Below the pieces are notes generated by a model that saw only the letters and a list, made by a program, of their open reading frames with translations, made no database searches and was not told where the DNA came from. A stretch of DNA of 15,390 bases, taken from assembly GCA_000004985.1 (NCBI GenBank), contig GG738966.1; one strand, 5' to 3'. Position 1 is the stretch's first letter; the number at the start of each line of letters is the position of its first letter. Positions 2,172 to 15,384 of the stretch are shown one piece after another. Position numbers and translations under genes: made by a program. Source of the DNA: Naegleria gruberi (Eukaryota).

Positions 2172-3159
2172 ATGGTTAAACATGCTTTTGCAAAATTTGC
2201 AACAGACTTTGAAAGGATTTCTGGTTTAAAATTTGTAAGTAATGGGAACCAATCACCAACCTTTCAAATGCCTGATTCTACTTCAAACACTACCCCTACA
2301 TCCAACAAAAGAAAAAGACAAATCTATGATTCCGAAATTTCTCCTGATGATAACAATTATTCAACATCAATACAATCTAAACAATACCATATTGGAGGTG
2401 ATGATACTTTTTCTTTTGCATTAAATATTGATAATGATTTGAATTCAATAACAACTTTAACATCACCAACACCCCTAGAACCTCATCAAATACAATCAGA
2501 AATATCTCCTATTAATAGTAATTCAACATCACTCAATTATCATCCTTTGAATGTTAAACCTGTTCATTTTACATCTCCAATAATTCAAAATAATAACCTT
2601 CTTTCCAAGCAATTATTTAATACATCATCAATGACAACCTATGAGTCAGTTATGGAAATATTATCATTTATTGTGGAAGCAAAGTTAAACAAAACTCAAT
2701 CACAAAGTTTTTTAAATCTACTTCACAAGTTATTACCTCCTTGTAATCTTCCAAATAAGATTTATGATTTGATGGATATGGTTACAGATATTGAGGATAA
2801 GTACTTCAAAGTTTACTTTTGTGAAGAATGTGAATCAGTTTCAAAACATTCTCAAACAATTTGTAAATGTGGTGAAATATTTGATATTAACAAATTCTTT
2901 TATATGATTGATTTTGATAAGGAATTATCTCTTAAATTTAATACACTTTCTTACTATGAGGCAACCAAATATTATTCTCATGAATATTTGAGAAAGAAGA
3001 AATCTCATGATATTATGCAAGAAATTTATGATGGGTCTACGTATCAAAAACAGATAAGTGCTTTTACAAGAATTCATAATAGTGAAGAAATTAATGTTTC
3101 CTATATTATTAACAATGATGGTGTTGCTGCTCATAAATCTAGTTCCAAATCCCCAGAGG
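2172..3159 (+). CDS. 5' part of a gene truncated by gap 1. About 230 aa of Ser/Thr/Asn-rich low complexity (with a KRKRQ NLS-like motif) lead into a region resembling the N-terminal zinc-finger/DG segment of Tnp2/Transposase_21 (CACTA/EnSpm-like) transposases. The gene is transposase-like or transposase-derived.
   Basis: The ORF is open from 2136, and the better start context is ATG 2172 (aaaaaaaATGg). It carries YFCEECESVSKHSQTICKCGEIF, which matches the Tnp2 pattern C-x2-C-x(about 10)-C-x-C-G. It also carries ...EIYDGSTYQKQISAFTRIHNSEEINVSYIINNDGVAAHKSSSKS, which matches the Tnp2 pattern ...D..W..F.......NV.LGL.TDGFNPF...SSS. The match is motif-level recall, not a database search. Confidence 0.5.
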
Positions 3160-5061
3160 NNNNNNNNNNNNNNNNNNNNNNNNNNNNNNNNNNNNNNNNN
3201 NNNNNNNNNNNNNNNNNNNNNNNNNNNNNNNNNNNNNNNNNNNNNNNNNNNNNNNNNNNNNNNNNNNNNNNNNNNNNNNNNNNNNNNNNNNNNNNNNNNN
3301 NNNNNNNNNNNNNNNNNNNNNNNNNNNNNNNNNNNNNNNNNNNNNNNNNNNNNNNNNNNNNNNNNNNNNNNNNNNNNNNNNNNNNNNNNNNNNNNNNNNN
3401 NNNNNNNNNNNNNNNNNNNNNNNNNNNNNNNNNNNNNNNNNNNNNNNNNNNNNNNNNNNNNNNNNNNNNNNNNNNNNNNNNNNNNNNNNNNNNNNNNNNN
3501 NNNNNNNNNNNNNNNNNNNNNNNNNNNNNNNNNNNNNNNNNNNNNNNNNNNNNNNNNNNNNNNNNNNNNNNNNNNNNNNNNNNNNNNNNNNNNNNNNNNN
3601 NNNNNNNNNNNNNNNNNNNNNNNNNNNNNNNNNNNNNNNNNNNNNNNNNNNNNNNNNNNNNNNNNNNNNNNNNNNNNNNNNNNNNNNNNNNNNNNNNNNN
3701 NNNNNNNNNNNNNNNNNNNNNNNNNNNNNNNNNNNNNNNNNNNNNNNNNNNNNNNNNNNNNNNNNNNNNNNNNNNNNNNNNNNNNNNNNNNNNNNNNNNN
3801 NNNNNNNNNNNNNNNNNNNNNNNNNNNNNNNNNNNNNNNNNNNNNNNNNNNNNNNNNNNNNNNNNNNNNNNNNNNNNNNNNNNNNNNNNNNNNNNNNNNN
3901 NNNNNNNNNNNNNNNNNNNNNNNNNNNNNNNNNNNNNNNNNNNNNNNNNNNNNNNNNNNNNNNNNNNNNNNNNNNNNNNNNNNNNNNNNNNNNNNNNNNN
4001 NNNNNNNNNNNNNNNNNNNNNNNNNNNNNNNNNNNNNNNNNNNNNNNNNNNNNNNNNNNNNNNNNNNNNNNNNNNNNNNNNNNNNNNNNNNNNNNNNNNN
4101 NNNNNNNNNNNNNNNNNNNNNNNNNNNNNNNNNNNNNNNNNNNNNNNNNNNNNNNNNNNNNNNNNNNNNNNNNNNNNNNNNNNNNNNNNNNNNNNNNNNN
4201 NNNNNNNNNNNNNNNNNNNNNNNNNNNNNNNNNNNNNNNNNNNNNNNNNNNNNNNNNNNNNNNNNNNNNNNNNNNNNNNNNNNNNNNNNNNNNNNNNNNN
4301 NNNNNNNNNNNNNNNNNNNNNNNNNNNNNNNNNNNNNNNNNNNNNNNNNNNNNNNNNNNNNNNNNNNNNNNNNNNNNNNNNNNNNNNNNNNNNNNNNNNN
4401 NNNNNNNNNNNNNNNNNNNNNNNNNNNNNNNNNNNNNNNNNNNNNNNNNNNNNNNNNNNNNNNNNNNNNNNNNNNNNNNNNNNNNNNNNNNNNNNNNNNN
4501 NNNNNNNNNNNNNNNNNNNNNNNNNNNNNNNNNNNNNNNNNNNNNNNNNNNNNNNNNNNNNNNNNNNNNNNNNNNNNNNNNNNNNNNNNNNNNNNNNNNN
4601 NNNNNNNNNNNNNNNNNNNNNNNNNNNNNNNNNNNNNNNNNNNNNNNNNNNNNNNNNNNNNNNNNNNNNNNNNNNNNNNNNNNNNNNNNNNNNNNNNNNN
4701 NNNNNNNNNNNNNNNNNNNNNNNNNNNNNNNNNNNNNNNNNNNNNNNNNNNNNNNNNNNNNNNNNNNNNNNNNNNNNNNNNNNNNNNNNNNNNNNNNNNN
4801 NNNNNNNNNNNNNNNNNNNNNNNNNNNNNNNNNNNNNNNNNNNNNNNNNNNNNNNNNNNNNNNNNNNNNNNNNNNNNNNNNNNNNNNNNNNNNNNNNNNN
4901 NNNNNNNNNNNNNNNNNNNNNNNNNNNNNNNNNNNNNNNNNNNNNNNNNNNNNNNNNNNNNNNNNNNNNNNNNNNNNNNNNNNNNNNNNNNNNNNNNNNN
5001 NNNNNNNNNNNNNNNNNNNNNNNNNNNNNNNNNNNNNNNNNNNNNNNNNNNNNNNNNNNNN
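3160..5061. other. Assembly gap 1 (1,902 N).
   Basis: Run of n characters. It hides the 3' part of the transposase-like gene and the 5' part of MAD1. Confidence 0.99.
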
Positions 5062-7744
5062 TCATCAACAAGTCTTAATGAATCTGTCAAGAATGTTCAA
5101 GGAACAAATGATGAAAATTTCGAAAATTATGTGCATGAAACTTTCGGAACAAATTCAAATAAGAATAATCAATCTATTGTGAATAGAAAACCAGCAATTA
5201 GTGTATTCGAGGATGAAAATATTGAAAAATCTACCATTGAGGAACAATATTTATTTGGTGCTGAGGATGAAGAACCATCGATGGAAACTAATGTAAATAG
5301 AAACTTTGAGAAAAGACCTTCTCAACAATCCAACAATCAATTTTCTTCTCCTTTGAAAAAGAGAAAATTAGCTTCACAACAATTAATTTCTAATGCTGGT
5401 CATACGGAAGTTGAGGATGAGGAAGAAGATTTGGCCAATTGTTCACTTGTCATTTCACCACCTCCTTTTGATGAAGAGGAAACATCCTCTGCTGCCAATA
5501 ACATGCTCTTTGGAAATGATGAAGAAAATGTGAGTGGACCAATATTGGAAGCAGGTCTCTACACTGGACGATCCAGGGATAGAAAGAGTAGAATTAAAAG
5601 TAGTTACTATGAGCCAGGATCACCACTCAATACTGGCCTTGAGAATAATCCTTCAATGATCATTTCGAGTTCACCACTCTTGAAATATACAGTACCATCG
5701 ACGGAGAGTGCCAGCAACAACAACATGCTAAATGATAGTATTACCAATAGAAGCTCTATTCTCAATGAGAGTCTCAGGGAGAGGGACGACATTATCGATC
5801 AATTGAATAATGAAGCTGAGGGAGAGAGAAGAAAACTCAAAGAATACAAGCTTCTCATCGAAAAACTTCAATCAGAGAATGCTCACCTCAAGCAACAAAA
5901 CTCTTCAATCAAAAAGAAGAATGAGGAAATACTGATAGAAACAGAAAAGGAAAATAACACTAGGGAACTTGAAATTCAATCTTTGAAAGAGAAAATTGCC
6001 GAACAACAAACCACTATTAACTTACAAAATCTTTCCAAGACTCAAAAAGAATCTAAATTTACAAGAAATTGAAAGTAAAATATCTGGAATCAACAAGACT
6101 GTAGAGACTTTGAAAAGTGATATTGTACAAAAGGACATTACCATAGAAACTCTCAATAGTCAAATTGAATCAATGAACAAACAATTGGAGGAAGCATCAA
6201 CTACCAATTCTGAACTAATGACCGTCTATCACTCTCAAAAACATGAATTTAATTTATTAAGCCATGAATATGAAATACTAACATTCAAGACTTCACAATA
6301 TGATTCAAAGATTCAAGAACTTGACCAATTACAAGATGAAATCAAGACACTCAAAGCAGAGCTAAATGAAAGAAATGAGGACAAGAAAAAGATACGAATC
6401 TTGGAAGCGGAATTGCAAAAGGCCAGTGAATCTCTCCAATCACAAGAAGTTCTCAAGGAAGCCATCAAGGACTTTGAATCTGAGTTGACCAAGTTGGAAG
6501 TTCTTCGAATTGAAAATAGTTCACTCGAGTCCAAGTTGTACAATACTGAATCACTTTTAAAGAGCTGGGAAAGTGCCTTCCCTAATAATACTCCATCGGA
6601 TGTAAACTACAATATCAAGTTACAAGCCAAGAAAATAACTCGCCTCGAAGAAACCATTCAAGAAGTGAATCAAGAAAAGTTTGACATTGCCAAGCATGTG
6701 GAACGTTTAACTGTGGAGTTGGAATCAAGGGAGACAGAATGTGCCGAGCTTCGAAATGAAAACAAGCAACTCGAAGAGAAACTGGCCAGCACTGAAGTAA
6801 AGCTCTTCGCTGCCAAGAACCAATTGGAGAGCTCTATGAAATTTGCTCACATCAACGACAAGGAAGAGGCTATGAATGCTGCTGCCGATGAGGAAACTAA
6901 GGAAAAGATAGGCCATCACATGAGTAGAATAGCTGCCCTTGAAAAGATCATTGAGGAGAAGGATGTAAATACTCGTGAACTATTTGAAAGATTGGATATT
7001 TTGCAAAAACAAATAATTGACAAACAGACTCTTATCGAAAACTTTGAACATGAAGTGGAGAAGGTTAATGCTCAAAAGTTGGAAGTTCAAACCAAATCAG
7101 ATGAATTACAGGTACGAGTTGAAAAATTGGAAAAGAACAGAGACGCTCTCGAATTGGAAATTGCAAACTATGAAAAGAGACTAGGAAAGGGAGAATACAA
7201 TAAGGAGAAATTCAAAATTCTTCACATGAAAATCAACCCAGAAATTGAGGCCAAAAAATCCAGTGACAATGACATTGAACGATTAAAGACAGAAAATAAG
7301 CTCCTCACCGAAGAAATTACCTCCCTCAAAGAGCAATTACAAATCTCCTCCAACGATAATGCCTCCAGCTCAATTAACAATCAACGAGAAATTGAAAAGC
7401 TCAAAGAAGAAAATGCAGATGCCCAACGCAGAATTACCAAGCTCAAAGAAGTTTTCCAAAAGAGAATTAACGAATTTAGAAAATCAATCTATCTCTTATT
7501 TGGTTTCAGAGTTGATGTCATTGAAAATAATCGATTCAGATTGAGCAGTATGTATGCAGAATCTCCAGAAGATTATCTCATCTTTGAAAGTGATGGAAAT
7601 GCCATGAAACTCTTAAACTCTGAATTTGCTTGTTCACTAGAGGAAAAATCCATGAGATTTTTAAAGAATTTCAGATCCATTCCTGGATTTTTATGTTCCA
7701 TTACTTTGGATTTATTCAACAAGCAAACCGTTTTCACCCAATAA
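5062..7744 (+). CDS. MAD1: Spindle assembly checkpoint protein MAD1. The 5' end is missing in gap 1. Frame 1 (5062-6072) and frame 2 (5996-7744) are two halves of one gene separated by a single-nucleotide frame disruption between about 6030 and 6072. The stop is TAA at 7742-7744.
   Basis: The C-terminal domain RINEFRKSIYLLFGFRVDVIENNRFRLSSMYAESPEDYLIFESDGN...SIPGFLCSITLDLFNKQTVF aligns with the Mad1 C-terminal/RLK region (compare S. cerevisiae ...FIDVVNSLLGFKLEF...QLPCFLATITLRLWEQRQ and human ...SIPAFLSSLTLELFSRQTVA). It is preceded by about 580 aa of heptad-rich coiled coil that continues seamlessly across the frame junction. Frame 1 has no stop from 5062 to 6072. Confidence 0.85.
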
Positions 7745-7821: not shown

Positions 7822-8993
7822 ATGAATATTACACAACCTAACTTTATCACCACGACATTGCAACAATTGTTGGAAATGGGATTTACGCACGAACAAGCCA
7901 CACAAATGATCATTGTTCTCGAACAAGAGAAAACAAAGCAATTGGAAATTAATTCAAAGAAGAGAAACATGGATGAAAATTCAGAATTTGATTCATTCGG
8001 AAAAAAGAGAAAACAAGATGAAGAATTGTTTCCTGATGAAATTATAGTTGAATTGTATCATATCTTTCTAATTTTGAAGGATTCCGATTAATGTTTGTCA
8101 GTAAACAATTTATGAAAGCTTGCCGATTAATTAGAAAATGGTTGATTACTTCGGATTGCACTACCGAATTATTAAGAATGTTTTGTGAATCGTCATTTGC
8201 TGAACAAATTCACTCTTTGGTGATTGATGTTCCAATCACTTGGGAATTATTCAATCAAATCAAACTTAATTTTACAAATTTGAAAGAGTTGAATCTGTAC
8301 GAAGTAGCATTTCTCGATTTTTCAAATTATTTTGAAAGCAACCATTTAGAATCTTTAATAGTTCGAAACTGTAATAACATTAATCTCAATTCATTGCATT
8401 TATTCAATTTACAACATATAGAATGTCCCCTAAAGTCATCCAGTGGTGTCAGTAATATCATTCATTCGAATACTTTCAGCTTAAAAAGTATTACACTGCA
8501 TGGGAATGGAAATGTGATTAAGGAGGCTCACTTGTTTAAAAATCTTCCAGCATTGGAATATCTTAAACTTGTCAGATTTAACATTCCAGTTTCACAATTT
8601 AAGGAAATATTGAATTGTAAAGGTTTAAAATCACTACATTTACAATTCATTACTAACACGAGTGCCATTCTTTTGGACCAAAAACATTCACAGTTGTTCA
8701 ATTTGCCAACATTAGAAAAATTAGAAAGTTATCGAGTAGATCTTGACCTTATGCAGATTCTTATCCAATCAATGATTGCTCCTCTATTGAAATATTTATC
8801 AATTGGGGTAAATGGTGTCTTTAATTTTACACTTTCAAAAGCCTTTAGAGAAAATACATCTCTATCAAATATTGAAAACTTGTCTATTGAGAATCAGATA
8901 GAAAATATGGAAATAATTGAAAATATTTGTGAAAAAATATCCAAGTTACCTTTAAACAAATTTGCCTTTTCTGGAAATTCACTGTGTTTCTCA
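7822..8993 (+). CDS. F-box/leucine-rich-repeat protein, an SCF substrate-adaptor-like protein, with a UBA-like N-terminus. It is a single gene interrupted by a -1 frame change at 8088-8091 (ORFs 7822-8091 and 8091-gap). The 3' end is lost in gap 2.
   Basis: The N-terminus LQQLLEMGFTHEQATQMIIVL matches the UBA pattern ..L.eMGF..e.a..AL. The F-box consensus LPdEIL..If..L...dL....VsK.W is reconstituted only by joining the end of ORF1 (FPDEIIVELYHIFLILKDSD) to the start of ORF2 (LMFVSKQFMKACRLIRKWL). Downstream there are at least 8 LRR-like L..L.L..C..I.D repeats (NLKELNLYEV, LESLIVRNCNNINL, LKSITLHGNGNVI, LEYLKLVRFNI, LKSLHLQFITN and others). Confidence 0.6.
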
Positions 8994-11900
8994 NNNNNNN
9001 NNNNNNNNNNNNNNNNNNNNNNNNNNNNNNNNNNNNNNNNNNNNNNNNNNNNNNNNNNNNNNNNNNNNNNNNNNNNNNNNNNNNNNNNNNNNNNNNNNNN
9101 NNNNNNNNNNNNNNNNNNNNNNNNNNNNNNNNNNNNNNNNNNNNNNNNNNNNNNNNNNNNNNNNNNNNNNNNNNNNNNNNNNNNNNNNNNNNNNNNNNNN
9201 NNNNNNNNNNNNNNNNNNNNNNNNNNNNNNNNNNNNNNNNNNNNNNNNNNNNNNNNNNNNNNNNNNNNNNNNNNNNNNNNNNNNNNNNNNNNNNNNNNNN
9301 NNNNNNNNNNNNNNNNNNNNNNNNNNNNNNNNNNNNNNNNNNNNNNNNNNNNNNNNNNNNNNNNNNNNNNNNNNNNNNNNNNNNNNNNNNNNNNNNNNNN
9401 NNNNNNNNNNNNNNNNNNNNNNNNNNNNNNNNNNNNNNNNNNNNNNNNNNNNNNNNNNNNNNNNNNNNNNNNNNNNNNNNNNNNNNNNNNNNNNNNNNNN
9501 NNNNNNNNNNNNNNNNNNNNNNNNNNNNNNNNNNNNNNNNNNNNNNNNNNNNNNNNNNNNNNNNNNNNNNNNNNNNNNNNNNNNNNNNNNNNNNNNNNNN
9601 NNNNNNNNNNNNNNNNNNNNNNNNNNNNNNNNNNNNNNNNNNNNNNNNNNNNNNNNNNNNNNNNNNNNNNNNNNNNNNNNNNNNNNNNNNNNNNNNNNNN
9701 NNNNNNNNNNNNNNNNNNNNNNNNNNNNNNNNNNNNNNNNNNNNNNNNNNNNNNNNNNNNNNNNNNNNNNNNNNNNNNNNNNNNNNNNNNNNNNNNNNNN
9801 NNNNNNNNNNNNNNNNNNNNNNNNNNNNNNNNNNNNNNNNNNNNNNNNNNNNNNNNNNNNNNNNNNNNNNNNNNNNNNNNNNNNNNNNNNNNNNNNNNNN
9901 NNNNNNNNNNNNNNNNNNNNNNNNNNNNNNNNNNNNNNNNNNNNNNNNNNNNNNNNNNNNNNNNNNNNNNNNNNNNNNNNNNNNNNNNNNNNNNNNNNNN
10001 NNNNNNNNNNNNNNNNNNNNNNNNNNNNNNNNNNNNNNNNNNNNNNNNNNNNNNNNNNNNNNNNNNNNNNNNNNNNNNNNNNNNNNNNNNNNNNNNNNNN
10101 NNNNNNNNNNNNNNNNNNNNNNNNNNNNNNNNNNNNNNNNNNNNNNNNNNNNNNNNNNNNNNNNNNNNNNNNNNNNNNNNNNNNNNNNNNNNNNNNNNNN
10201 NNNNNNNNNNNNNNNNNNNNNNNNNNNNNNNNNNNNNNNNNNNNNNNNNNNNNNNNNNNNNNNNNNNNNNNNNNNNNNNNNNNNNNNNNNNNNNNNNNNN
10301 NNNNNNNNNNNNNNNNNNNNNNNNNNNNNNNNNNNNNNNNNNNNNNNNNNNNNNNNNNNNNNNNNNNNNNNNNNNNNNNNNNNNNNNNNNNNNNNNNNNN
10401 NNNNNNNNNNNNNNNNNNNNNNNNNNNNNNNNNNNNNNNNNNNNNNNNNNNNNNNNNNNNNNNNNNNNNNNNNNNNNNNNNNNNNNNNNNNNNNNNNNNN
10501 NNNNNNNNNNNNNNNNNNNNNNNNNNNNNNNNNNNNNNNNNNNNNNNNNNNNNNNNNNNNNNNNNNNNNNNNNNNNNNNNNNNNNNNNNNNNNNNNNNNN
10601 NNNNNNNNNNNNNNNNNNNNNNNNNNNNNNNNNNNNNNNNNNNNNNNNNNNNNNNNNNNNNNNNNNNNNNNNNNNNNNNNNNNNNNNNNNNNNNNNNNNN
10701 NNNNNNNNNNNNNNNNNNNNNNNNNNNNNNNNNNNNNNNNNNNNNNNNNNNNNNNNNNNNNNNNNNNNNNNNNNNNNNNNNNNNNNNNNNNNNNNNNNNN
10801 NNNNNNNNNNNNNNNNNNNNNNNNNNNNNNNNNNNNNNNNNNNNNNNNNNNNNNNNNNNNNNNNNNNNNNNNNNNNNNNNNNNNNNNNNNNNNNNNNNNN
10901 NNNNNNNNNNNNNNNNNNNNNNNNNNNNNNNNNNNNNNNNNNNNNNNNNNNNNNNNNNNNNNNNNNNNNNNNNNNNNNNNNNNNNNNNNNNNNNNNNNNN
11001 NNNNNNNNNNNNNNNNNNNNNNNNNNNNNNNNNNNNNNNNNNNNNNNNNNNNNNNNNNNNNNNNNNNNNNNNNNNNNNNNNNNNNNNNNNNNNNNNNNNN
11101 NNNNNNNNNNNNNNNNNNNNNNNNNNNNNNNNNNNNNNNNNNNNNNNNNNNNNNNNNNNNNNNNNNNNNNNNNNNNNNNNNNNNNNNNNNNNNNNNNNNN
11201 NNNNNNNNNNNNNNNNNNNNNNNNNNNNNNNNNNNNNNNNNNNNNNNNNNNNNNNNNNNNNNNNNNNNNNNNNNNNNNNNNNNNNNNNNNNNNNNNNNNN
11301 NNNNNNNNNNNNNNNNNNNNNNNNNNNNNNNNNNNNNNNNNNNNNNNNNNNNNNNNNNNNNNNNNNNNNNNNNNNNNNNNNNNNNNNNNNNNNNNNNNNN
11401 NNNNNNNNNNNNNNNNNNNNNNNNNNNNNNNNNNNNNNNNNNNNNNNNNNNNNNNNNNNNNNNNNNNNNNNNNNNNNNNNNNNNNNNNNNNNNNNNNNNN
11501 NNNNNNNNNNNNNNNNNNNNNNNNNNNNNNNNNNNNNNNNNNNNNNNNNNNNNNNNNNNNNNNNNNNNNNNNNNNNNNNNNNNNNNNNNNNNNNNNNNNN
11601 NNNNNNNNNNNNNNNNNNNNNNNNNNNNNNNNNNNNNNNNNNNNNNNNNNNNNNNNNNNNNNNNNNNNNNNNNNNNNNNNNNNNNNNNNNNNNNNNNNNN
11701 NNNNNNNNNNNNNNNNNNNNNNNNNNNNNNNNNNNNNNNNNNNNNNNNNNNNNNNNNNNNNNNNNNNNNNNNNNNNNNNNNNNNNNNNNNNNNNNNNNNN
11801 NNNNNNNNNNNNNNNNNNNNNNNNNNNNNNNNNNNNNNNNNNNNNNNNNNNNNNNNNNNNNNNNNNNNNNNNNNNNNNNNNNNNNNNNNNNNNNNNNNNN

Positions 11901-13498
11901 NNNNNNNNNNNNNNNNNNNNNNNNNNNNNNNNNNNNNNNNNNNNNNNNNNNNNNNNNNNNNNNNNNNNNNNNNNNNNNNNNNNNNNNNNNNNNNNNNNNN
12001 NNNNNNNNNNNNNNNNNNNNNNNNNNNNNNNNNNNNNNNNNNNNNNNNNNNNNNNNNNNNNNNNNNNNNNNNNNNNNNNNNNNNNNNNNNNNNNNNNNNN
12101 NNNNNNNNNNNNNNNNNNNNNNNNNNNNNNNNNNNNNNNNNNNNNNNNNNNNNNNNNNNNNNNNNNNNNNNNNNNNNNNNNNNNNNNNNNNNNNNNNNNN
12201 NNNNNNNNNNNNNNNNNNNNNNNNNNNNNNNNNNNNNNNNNNNNNNNNNNNNNNNNNNNNNNNNNNNNNNNNNNNNNNNNNNNNNNNNNNNNNNNNNNNN
12301 NNNNNNNNNNNNNNNNNNNNNNNNNNNNNNNNNNNNNNNNNNNNNNNNNNNNNNNNNNNNNNNNNNNNNNNNNNNNNNNNNNNNNNNNNNNNNNNNNNNN
12401 NNNNNNNNNNNNNNNNNNNNNNNNNNNNNNNNNNNNNNNNNNNNNNNNNNNNNNNNNNNNNNNNNNNNNNNNNNNNNNNNNNNNNNNNNNNNNNNNNNNN
12501 NNNNNNNNNNNNNNNNNNNNNNNNNNNNNNNNNNNNNNNNNNNNNNNNNNNNNNNNNNNNNNNNNNNNNNNNNNNNNNNNNNNNNNNNNNNNNNNNNNNN
12601 NNNNNNNNNNNNNNNNNNNNNNNNNNNNNNNNNNNNNNNNNNNNNNNNNNNNNNNNNNNNNNNNNNNNNNNNNNNNNNNNNNNNNNNNNNNNNNNNNNNN
12701 NNNNNNNNNNNNNNNNNNNNNNNNNNNNNNNNNNNNNNNNNNNNNNNNNNNNNNNNNNNNNNNNNNNNNNNNNNNNNNNNNNNNNNNNNNNNNNNNNNNN
12801 NNNNNNNNNNNNNNNNNNNNNNNNNNNNNNNNNNNNNNNNNNNNNNNNNNNNNNNNNNNNNNNNNNNNNNNNNNNNNNNNNNNNNNNNNNNNNNNNNNNN
12901 NNNNNNNNNNNNNNNNNNNNNNNNNNNNNNNNNNNNNNNNNNNNNNNNNNNNNNNNNNNNNNNNNNNNNNNNNNNNNNNNNNNNNNNNNNNNNNNNNNNN
13001 NNNNNNNNNNNNNNNNNNNNNNNNNNNNNNNNNNNNNNNNNNNNNNNNNNNNNNNNNNNNNNNNNNNNNNNNNNNNNNNNNNNNNNNNNNNNNNNNNNNN
13101 NNNNNNNNNNNNNNNNNNNNNNNNNNNNNNNNNNNNNNNNNNNNNNNNNNNNNNNNNNNNNNNNNNNNNNNNNNNNNNNNNNNNNNNNNNNNNNNNNNNN
13201 NNNNNNNNNNNNNNNNNNNNNNNNNNNNNNNNNNNNNNNNNNNNNNNNNNNNNNNNNNNNNNNNNNNNNNNNNNNNNNNNNNNNNNNNNNNNNNNNNNNN
13301 NNNNNNNNNNNNNNNNNNNNNNNNNNNNNNNNNNNNNNNNNNNNNNNNNNNNNNNNNNNNNNNNNNNNNNNNNNNNNNNNNNNNNNNNNNNNNNNNNNNN
13401 NNNNNNNNNNNNNNNNNNNNNNNNNNNNNNNNNNNNNNNNNNNNNNNNNNNNNNNNNNNNNNNNNNNNNNNNNNNNNNNNNNNNNNNNNNNNNNNNNN
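8994..13498. other. Assembly gap 2 (4,505 N).
   Basis: Run of n characters. It hides the 3' part of the F-box/LRR gene and the 3' part of the Rho-family GTPase gene. Confidence 0.99.
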
Positions 13499-13686
13499 AG
13501 CAGAGTAGTTATCAAAGACAGTTGGAACGTATCTATTAGAAACTTGTTAATAAACTATAATTTTCTATTCGAAACCTACTCTTCAGGGAAGTGATTCTTA
13601 GCATAGACGTACAAGAGACATGTCTTACCGACAGCACCATCACCAACGATAACGCATTTAATATGTTGAACGGTTGTCTTGCTCAT
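13499..13686 (-). CDS. Rho-family small GTPase (Rac/Cdc42/Rho5-like), 5' part. Exon 1 is 13686..13580 (ATG at 13686-13684, 35 codons plus 2 nt). A 47-nt intron occupies 13579..13533. Exon 2 runs 13532..13499 and continues into gap 2.
   Basis: The minus-strand translation is [35 protein letters not shown]|[12 protein letters not shown]. The P-loop [11 protein letters not shown] and switch-[10 protein letters not shown] are diagnostic of Rho/Rac/Cdc42, and DNYSA is Rac-like. The spliced junction restores the frame exactly, whereas the unspliced read hits TAG after FPEE. Confidence 0.8.
13533..13579 (-). other. Spliceosomal intron (47 nt) in the Rho-family GTPase gene: gtaggtttcgaatagaaaattatagtttattaacaagtttctaatag.
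   Basis: The donor is GTAGGT. TATTAAC, a one-mismatch variant of the TACTAAC branch site, lies 14 nt from the 3' AG. It is the only acceptor that yields the conserved [10 protein letters not shown] continuation; the other three upstream AGs give immediate stops. Confidence 0.7.
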
Positions 13687-14415
13687 TGTATTGTTGGAGT
13701 GTTGACAATTTTTTTTTTTAAAGTTTTAAATGTGACAAGTGAATGACAGCTTGACAGAGGGCATGACTGTTTTGCCAACAAGAAGGATCCCTTAACGGTG
13801 AACTGTGAAGAATGACTTGATGAACACAGAAATTGAGAATTTAAATGTAAATTGAGGTAACGAATTTTTGTTTGAGGTTTTTAAATTGATGCCTGAAAGG
13901 TGGCAGCAGTTAATTTTCAACAATGGCACAGAAGAGAAGAAAAAGGATATTGGTGCTCTTCTCTTATTCATCATCTAGATTCCCAATTGGTGTTTAGATA
14001 ACCAATAGGAAGCTAGAACATGAATTACATTCGTGAAGGGAGAAGGAGGAACTCTGAAAAAGTGTTGGACCTTTCAAATTGATTGTGTTGATTCATCAGG
14101 AGCGAAGATTGTGTTGGAAAATAAAGAGCAATTCAAGAATAAGATTTGGGTTTTGGTGTTTTGTTGATTATTTCACAAGTTGTTGCAATTTGATCATCGA
14201 CAGTAAGTAATGTATAAAATGGATTGAAATAGAACATGATCATTGCTGACTAACTTCCTTTTAATGTTCTTGATATATTTCAATAGTTCAATGTTCTTGA
14301 TCATGATTCGTTCCCTTAAATTCAAAATTGGTTTGCTGTAACCTTTGGCGCCAAAATGAATTGTTCAACCTAAGGTAACTTTTACGAACACTAAAAAAAC
14401 AATTCAAAAAAAAAT
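13687..14415. promoter_or_regulatory. Divergent intergenic/promoter region (about 730 bp) between the GTPase start (-) and the Ser/Thr-rich gene start (+). It contains a 12-nt poly(dT) tract at 13711-13722 and an intron-like element at 14203-14286.
   Basis: It lies between divergent ATGs and holds only short spurious ORFs. A homopolymer dA:dT tract immediately upstream of the GTPase ATG is typical of nucleosome-excluding promoter elements in yeasts. Confidence 0.3.
14203..14286 (+). other. Putative 84-nt spliceosomal intron in the 5' leader upstream of the Ser/Thr-rich gene: GTAAGT...GACTAAC...(33 nt)...TAG.
   Basis: The donor GTAAGT is at 14203-14208. A branch-site-like GACTAAC lies at 14248-14254, and the first downstream AG is at 14285-14286. 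There is no ATG in the 180 nt upstream, so if real it is a 5'-UTR intron. Short uORFs remain downstream (ATG at 14291, 14303 and 14357). Confidence 0.35.
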
Positions 14416-15384
14416 ATGGTGTTCCTGCAGTTGATGAAGGAAGCAATGTNNNNNNNNNNNNNNNNNNNNNNNNNNNNNNNNNNNNNNNNNNNNNNNNNNT
14501 GCTCAAATTCAAGCAAAGCACAACACTTTCAAAATTCAAAGAGAGAATCTATACCCACTAATAGTAAGGATTCAAATTCGCCGAAATTAACAACATCCTT
14601 ATCGAATGAAACATTCTATTCAGAGAACCGCAGTGAAATAAGTCCTCCTGATCCATTTCAGTCTTCACAAAAGGGAGTTCCCTCCAAACTGTCCTCAACC
14701 AATTCTAATCAACAAGAAAAAGATTCTTCACCACTTAGTAAGGAAACTTTTACTCCAGTAGTTGCTTTTAGTCCAATTCTTACTGATATTGAAGATGATT
14801 CAAAGGCAATTTACATGCATCCATATCATGGAAGCTTGCCTCCCCTTAGTCCAAGCAATTCAACATGCTCTTCAAAGACCTCTTCAAGCAATTGCAGCAC
14901 TCTTTCATCTCCTAAAGAGAAGATCACATCCCCATCTCATTCATCATCGTACATTACTGCATCTGCTACATACTCATCTTCACCATCACCATCATCAACA
15001 ACATCAGGAGTTGCAACTAGCTCTTCTCCAACTACACTCATCCAACCATCGTCAACAGCATCTGTTAATGCATCTACATCTAACACAACACCAGAAACAA
15101 TAACATCCACCCCAATAATCTCAAAAGAAACACCCAAACCAACCATTGAGATCAGTAAAGTGTCGAATACTGCTCCGACTACATCTTCGCCAATTTCCAA
15201 AGATAAATTAAAGAGAGCTAGACCTCTTTCTGCAACCAAAAATCCACTGGTTCAATCTCTGACATTGGAAAAATTTAAAGACGATTTAGCTATTGGAAGA
15301 AAATCGAAATCAAATATCATTTCAGATAATTCAGTCAAAGTACCTTACAGCTCTTCACTAACTAGATCAGGGAAGAACCATTAA
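14416..15384 (+). CDS. Ser/Thr/Pro/Asn-rich low-complexity protein, possibly a regulatory or cell-surface protein. The candidate start ATG is at 14416 (aaaaaaaatATGg). The body is open in frame 1 from 14500 to TAA at 15382-15384 and is interrupted by the 50-N gap 14450-14499, so true length and phase across the gap are unknown.
   Basis: A continuous 295-codon open frame follows the gap, with strong Ser/Thr bias (SSSNCSTLSSPKEKITSPSHSSSYITASATYSSSPSPSSTTSG...). The first in-frame ATG after the gap is far downstream (about 14816), so the start must lie in or before the gap. Confidence 0.5.
   Translation: MVFLQLMKEAMXXXXXXXXXXXXXXXXXCSNSSKAQHFQNSKRESIPTNSKDSNSPKLTTSLSNETFYSENRSEISPPDPFQSSQKGVPSKLSSTNSNQQEKDSSPLSKETFTPVVAFSPILTDIEDDSKAIYMHPYHGSLPPLSPSNSTCSSKTSSSNCSTLSSPKEKITSPSHSSSYITASATYSSSPSPSSTTSGVATSSSPTTLIQPSSTASVNASTSNTTPETITSTPIISKETPKPTIEISKVSNTAPTTSSPISKDKLKRARPLSATKNPLVQSLTLEKFKDDLAIGRKSKSNIISDNSVKVPYSSSLTRSGKNH
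14450..14499. other. Assembly gap 3, exactly 50 N, a conventional placeholder for a gap of unknown size.
   Basis: Run of 50 n characters. This is not a multiple of 3, so the apparent in-frame continuity of the flanking ORF in the six-frame track is coincidental. Confidence 0.95.

Follow-up and report, generated by a model that had tools for sequence, protein, structure and literature searches.

The Rho family is highly expanded in Naegleria gruberi, which carries at least 23 Rho genes (PMC8305917), and in its amoeboid lineage Rho, Dbl and DOCK genes are noted to occur in many copies (PMC5499878). The described counterparts of the present locus within the genus are N. lovaniensis C9374_008393 (XP_044545512.1, 209 aa) and N. 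fowleri FDP41_006281 (XP_044559520.1, 210 aa), both labelled 'Rho family small GTPase'. Outside the genus, Willaertia magna ABK040_014449 (KAL9651804.1, 199 aa), which contains DTAGQE, TKxD, SAK and a terminal CMLL, stands beside Rac-like proteins with the segment LLWVYANN from Heterolobosea sp. BB2 and Acrasis kona ('Ras-related protein Rac'). Full-length members of this Willaertia type show every Rho/Rac motif together with a CAAX motif; G3 DxxGQE, G4 [NT]KxD and G5 SAK or SAL were found in the full-length relatives, and their C-termini were CMLL, CTLL or CNLL.

The window analysed here (15,390 bp) makes up one whole scaffold, a small one, in the draft genome of N. gruberi and contains three runs of N. 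The GC content of its sequenced parts is 29-40% (about 33%), in agreement with the published N. gruberi value of 33% (PMC8296547). The product of the minus-strand ORF at 519-2024 was 100% identical over all of its 501 residues to the NCBI entry 'predicted protein [Naegleria gruberi]'. Rfam and tRNA scans of the window gave no matches. The Rac-like GTPase feature is located on the minus strand, and its parts are listed in Table 1 along with other features of the scaffold.

Table 1. Features of the N. gruberi scaffold (positions on the minus strand run from high to low)
Feature	Position	Strand	Description
Start codon ATG	13686	-	in-frame upstream stop and N-termini of homologues
In-frame TAA upstream of ATG	13728-13726	-	bounds the ORF
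Exon 1, 107 nt	13686-13580	-	35 residues plus GA (2 nt of codon 36); G1/P-loop GDGAVGKT
Intron, 47 nt	13579-13533	-	phase 2, GT-AG; donor GTAGGT, acceptor AATAG
TATTAAC, candidate branch site	13552-13546	-	motif match; A at 13547, 14 nt from the last base of the intron
Exon 2, first part, 34 nt	13532-13499	-	completes codon E36; encodes switch I/G2 with the conserved Thr
Scaffold gap, 4,505 N	8994-13498	.	adjoins exon 2
ORF, 501 residues	519-2024	-	
MAD1-like spindle-checkpoint gene	5062-7744	+	frame change at junction 5996-6072
Intron-like element, 84 nt	14203-14286	+	GTAAGT ... GACTAAC ... AATAG; A 33 nt from the end
Ser/Thr-rich ORF	14416-15384	+	

The ATG at 13686 is backed as the start codon because an in-frame TAA upstream bounds the ORF and homologues start at an equivalent place, the N-terminus of the Willaertia homologue being MSKAAQHIKCV. 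In tblastn, heterolobosean Rac proteins aligned onto the window over 13686-13579. Exon 1 ends with ...NHFPE plus GA, exactly as an earlier note on this DNA had read it. If the frame is followed without splicing, it reads ...PEE and then TAG; as retention would give this 36-aa product, removal of the 47-nt intron would be needed in the pre-mRNA. All GT..AG pairs of the region were enumerated, and 13579/13533 was the single solution that restored the homologous frame, with the P-loop kept and switch I free of deletions; the earlier note had proposed a 47-nt GT-AG intron at the same place. The alternative pairs were rejected; an 80-nt one (13612/13533), for instance, also kept the frame but lost 11 conserved residues.

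The letters of the intron are GTAGGTTTCGAATAGAAAATTATAGTTTATTAACAAGTTTCTAATAG, with a GC content of 23% against 41% for the exons. AG dinucleotides within it end at positions 4, 15, 25, 37 and 47, and the acceptor is the fourth AG after the donor hexamer, in agreement with the earlier count, or the fifth when the AG inside GTAGGT is included. The donor and the TATTAAC motif, with the distance of its A from the intron end, had likewise been described correctly. TATTAAC conforms to the general yUnAy branch pattern, and naming it the branch site is a motif-based guess. Exon 2 breaks off at the N run, so that the visible coding sequence amounts to 141 nt or 47 aa, and it directly abuts the 4.5-kb gap to which the remainder of the gene had been assigned. 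This gap would hold G3-G5, the Rho insert and the CAAX motif, and two more introns probably lie within it, judging from the gene structures in N. lovaniensis and N. fowleri, where one interrupts the gene in phase 0 after ...DGQ[KR] and another in phase 2 in the codon that follows GQE. No further exons were detected beyond the far side of the gap when four full-length Rac homologues were compared with the window by tblastn.

The spliced 47-aa peptide matched Ras in Pfam (E = 1.5e-11), and in PDB it matched RhoG (66.8 bits), Rac1 (66.2 bits) and Cdc42 (64.5 bits) with E of about 5e-18; these matches are far beyond chance. The P-loop pattern GxxxxGK[ST] is present in exon 1 as GDGAVGKT. Splicing also yields switch I: its conserved Thr stands in the Rho-type context YxPTVF[DE]NY, and it aligns to RhoG, Rac1 and Cdc42. 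The human proteins (structures such as 7y4a, 2yin and 1aje) share this P-loop and the switch I form (E)Y[VI]PTVFDNY with the fragment, whereas LLYVYAKN of N. gruberi stands where they have LLISYTTN, and the equivalents of Rac1 A27 and G30 are H and E. Taken together, these motifs identify the product as a predicted Rho-family GTPase of the Rac/RhoG/Cdc42 group, consistent with the original reading of the fragment as the 5′ end of a Rac/Cdc42-like gene. The DNYSA sequence fits Rac and RhoG and leans towards one of these; Trp56 falls outside the visible part, the PDB scores are nearly equal, and 47 residues are too few to separate Rac from RhoG or Cdc42.

The segment LLYVYAKN had been taken as the mark of a divergent paralogue. 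The best database matches were Rac-like proteins with LLWVYANN, LLHVYANN or similar (78-87% identity), and LL[W/H/Y/F]VYA[N/K] proved to be common to Rac-like proteins of Willaertia, Acrasis, Heterolobosea sp. BB2, N. lovaniensis, N. fowleri, Carpediemonas and Hexamita. The form is LLYVYAKGKF in N. lovaniensis and N. fowleri, and LLFVYANN and LLYVYTNN in the metamonads Carpediemonas and Hexamita, respectively. LLYVYAKN is therefore the normal form of a Rac clade in Heterolobosea and some metamonads and does not point to an aberrant paralogue.

The exons of the homologous genes in N. lovaniensis (L001:6001-6907) and N. fowleri (L004:6001-7140) were mapped onto the respective proteins. In both genes, intron 1 interrupts the codon (...GA|A) that is also split in N. 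gruberi, and its phase is the same. The junctions are ctctgaaga|GTAAGT in N. lovaniensis (intron of 107 nt), ctctgagga|GTAAGT in N. fowleri (228 nt) and ccctgaaga|GTAGGT in N. gruberi (47 nt), and the exon end ...tgaRga|GT is common to all three. The position has thus been kept in three Naegleria species over a five-fold range of intron length. The Willaertia gene has a single intron, in phase 1 after DT, and none at the N. gruberi site; the Acrasis gene model has introns of 36, 41 and 33 nt, one of them 5 nt downstream of the N. gruberi site; and three metagenomic relatives read straight through. Because Willaertia, Acrasis and the three metagenomic relatives are without an intron at the exact site, the intron is a shared character specific to Naegleria. 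As position and phase are identical to those of intron 1 in the N. lovaniensis and N. fowleri homologues, there is good comparative support for a genuine U2-type spliceosomal intron.

These comparisons also bear on the frame of reference used before, in which the size of the intron was measured against the lower limit for hemiascomycetes and its donor against GTATGT. A divergent hemiascomycete Rac/Cdc42 paralogue with an intron exceptional in size, donor and branch distance would suit AT-rich DNA whose few short introns look superficially yeast-like, and the splice motifs themselves had been described accurately. The scaffold, however, is from N. gruberi, a member of Heterolobosea, the closest relatives of the fragment are all heterolobosean or metamonad, and the intron position is common to N. 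fowleri and N. lovaniensis; the reading as such a paralogue is accordingly refuted. The yeast yardsticks (GTATGT donor, TACTAAC branch, minimum intron size) do not apply to this host, in which the donor is GTAGGT and the branch-like motif TATTAAC, and heterolobosean Acrasis models have introns of 33-41 nt. The published mean intron length of N. gruberi is 203 bp, with 1.7 exons per gene; 47 nt is well under that mean, which says little about the mode. When N. fowleri reads were mapped, the smallest intron allowed was 30 bp, a value 'based on an assessment of predicted genes' (PMC8296547). The literature searched gave summary numbers only, and neither a splice-site consensus nor a distribution of intron lengths for Naegleria. 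The methodological lesson is that the 'unusual' features stemmed from the wrong assumed organism and look ordinary beside Naegleria relatives.

The peculiarity of the donor likewise takes another form once Naegleria is the reference. Among the six Naegleria introns examined here, five had GTAAGT donors and one had GTATGA. With these six introns as the reference, GTAGGT differs from the common GTAAGT at +4 alone. A G at +4 can still form a G-U/pseudouridine wobble pair with U1 snRNA; among eukaryotes at large it is a common minor donor variant. The gene and intron could be real and GTAGGT be a base-calling error for GTAAGT at a low-coverage gap edge, in which case the one 'unusual' splice signal would be an artefact: the N. 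lovaniensis and N. fowleri homologues both carry GTAAGT here, the region lies less than 100 nt from the gap edge on a small scaffold, and elsewhere on this scaffold a frame break (5996-6072) is unexplained and a stop overlaps an ATG (8089-8093). On the other hand, the donor itself shows no direct sign of error, and a G at this position is tolerable for U1 pairing; we consider such an error unlikely.

We regard the feature as very probably the 5′ end of an ordinary N. gruberi Rac-type GTPase gene, split by a 47-nt intron at a conserved position and cut by the gap. In such a gene, transcription would run leftwards from about 13.7 kb, and the first exon of 107 nt would encode the N-terminus and the P-loop. 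The U2-type spliceosomal intron (GUAGGU...AG, phase 2) would be removed from the transcript, and exon 2 would carry switch I onward into the unsequenced gap. The intron would have been inherited, given that intron 1 of the N. lovaniensis and N. fowleri genes falls in the same codon, with identical phase. By analogy with its family, the product would be a prenylated Rac-type GDP/GTP switch acting on the actin cytoskeleton or its regulators.

A duplicated Rho-family gene of which a non-functional 5′ piece is left, unexpressed or not productively spliced, would look similar in several respects. The visible part ends after 47 codons, neither protein search found an annotated or transcript-derived protein that has the N. 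gruberi N-terminus, the Rho family is highly expanded in this species (PMC8305917; PMC5499878), and another gene of the scaffold has a frame break. Nevertheless, the visible part is without defect, with the ATG, P-loop, switch I residues, GT and AG all intact and the intron position conserved, and the gap suffices to account for the missing annotation. We therefore judge a pseudogene or relic to be quite improbable.

The two protein searches were made with the 47-aa peptide and with a 200-aa chimera of the N. gruberi N-terminus and the Willaertia remainder, which served as a search device only. Neither retrieved a protein carrying the N. gruberi N-terminus, and the best core identity was 22/25. 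Exact-sequence look-ups for the 501-aa neighbour ORF, its database twin and the 36-aa unspliced ORF found none on record. A metagenome scan with the spliced peptide plus one predicted residue, N (48 aa), returned generic Rac genes at 81% identity or less, and no close relative or complete copy. The gene is thus probably an unannotated Rho-family paralogue, absent from the N. gruberi proteome in the searched collection; that annotation missed it because the gap truncates it is the simplest reading. The gain is mainly one of annotation hygiene, with one probably unannotated Rho-family gene added to the large N. gruberi repertoire.

As for the relationship within the genus, orthology with FDP41_006281 and C9374_008393 is probable, because the intron character and the Y and K of LLYVYAK are shared. 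It is not secure, since plain identity is higher to LLWVYANN-type proteins than to the Naegleria ones: over 39 ungapped residues (the IKCV...DNYS block), the fragment was identical to LLWVYANN proteins of heteroloboseans at 36/39 and to both Naegleria proteins at 32/39. The Naegleria proteins further differ from the fragment in the switch I flank (GKFSEEHI, against NHFPEEYV in N. gruberi), and their N-termini are 6-7 residues longer. The Willaertia-type proteins, including those of sp. BB2 and Acrasis kona, share 35-36/39 residues of the visible block and the N-terminal layout MSK..QHIKCV, but have W or H for the Y and N for the K of the N. gruberi segment and no intron at the N. gruberi site. 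A tblastn comparison of all window ORFs with the N. lovaniensis locus gave no match that would indicate synteny, which likewise speaks against orthology. It is conceivable, though we hold it only tentatively, that an excavate-wide 'LLxVYA' Rac clade (Heterolobosea and some metamonads) has a sole Naegleria member and that the fragment is its orthologue in N. gruberi, missing from the reference proteome solely through the gap. If so, Rho/Rac surveys of N. gruberi would have missed a conserved Rac, and perhaps the one nearest to the ancestral form in Heterolobosea.

Several observations were made on the loci of the relatives. Gene order around the Rac-like gene is kept between N. lovaniensis PYSW02000034.1 (L001) and N. 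fowleri VFQX01000051.1 (L004), running TyrRS, IF4E, a 502-511-aa unknown, Rac, kinase-RasGEF, Serinc and then a YqeH-like GTPase gene (PF01926 MMR_HSR1, PF21516 YqeH-like_C); none of these neighbours was detectable on the N. gruberi scaffold. Willaertia magna JBEGDK010000069.1 carries two tandem Rho-family genes on the same strand (L005:1665-2585 and 3001-3803), of which the upstream one (230 aa) is a more divergent paralogue. In the Rac model of Acrasis kona JAOPGA020000270.1 (L003:3001-3722), an odd 'IS' interrupts DYDR-LRPLSYP, a stretch that is otherwise invariant; this suggests that the boundaries of the model's third intron are mis-annotated.

On the N. gruberi scaffold itself, the ORF at 5996-7741 of the MAD1-like gene matched Pfam MAD (PF05557) with E = 5.4e-57 over profile positions 95-661; the coiled-coil part before it is read in another frame, in an ORF ending at 6072. 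As the 77-nt zone that is open in both frames contains no GT, a GT-AG intron does not explain the frame change, which is due to an indel error of 1 nt or else to a genuine frameshift. Given this break, base-level quality near the gap may be poor. Further downstream, within 7822-8993 on the plus strand, an 89-aa ORF ends ...FPDEIIVELYHIFLILKDSD and is F-box-like by eye, with a weak UBA match. Its TAA overlaps the ATG of the next ORF (TAATG) around 8089-8093, and that ORF, MFVSKQFMKACRLIRKW..., resembles the rest of that motif, after which leucine-rich repeats extend into the gap. The overlap is possibly another 1-nt frameshift on the scaffold.

The second intron-like element that had been contrasted with the GTPase intron exists as a motif, with the length, GTAAGT, GACTAAC and branch distance given for it (Table 1). 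It falls in the intergenic stretch from which the GTPase gene and the Ser/Thr-rich ORF diverge. After its AG, stops follow soon in all three frames, and no ATG-started ORF enters its donor; if real, the element would therefore be a 5′-UTR intron. A 12-nt direct repeat, AATGTTCTTGAT, flanks its acceptor at 14263-14274 and 14290-14301.
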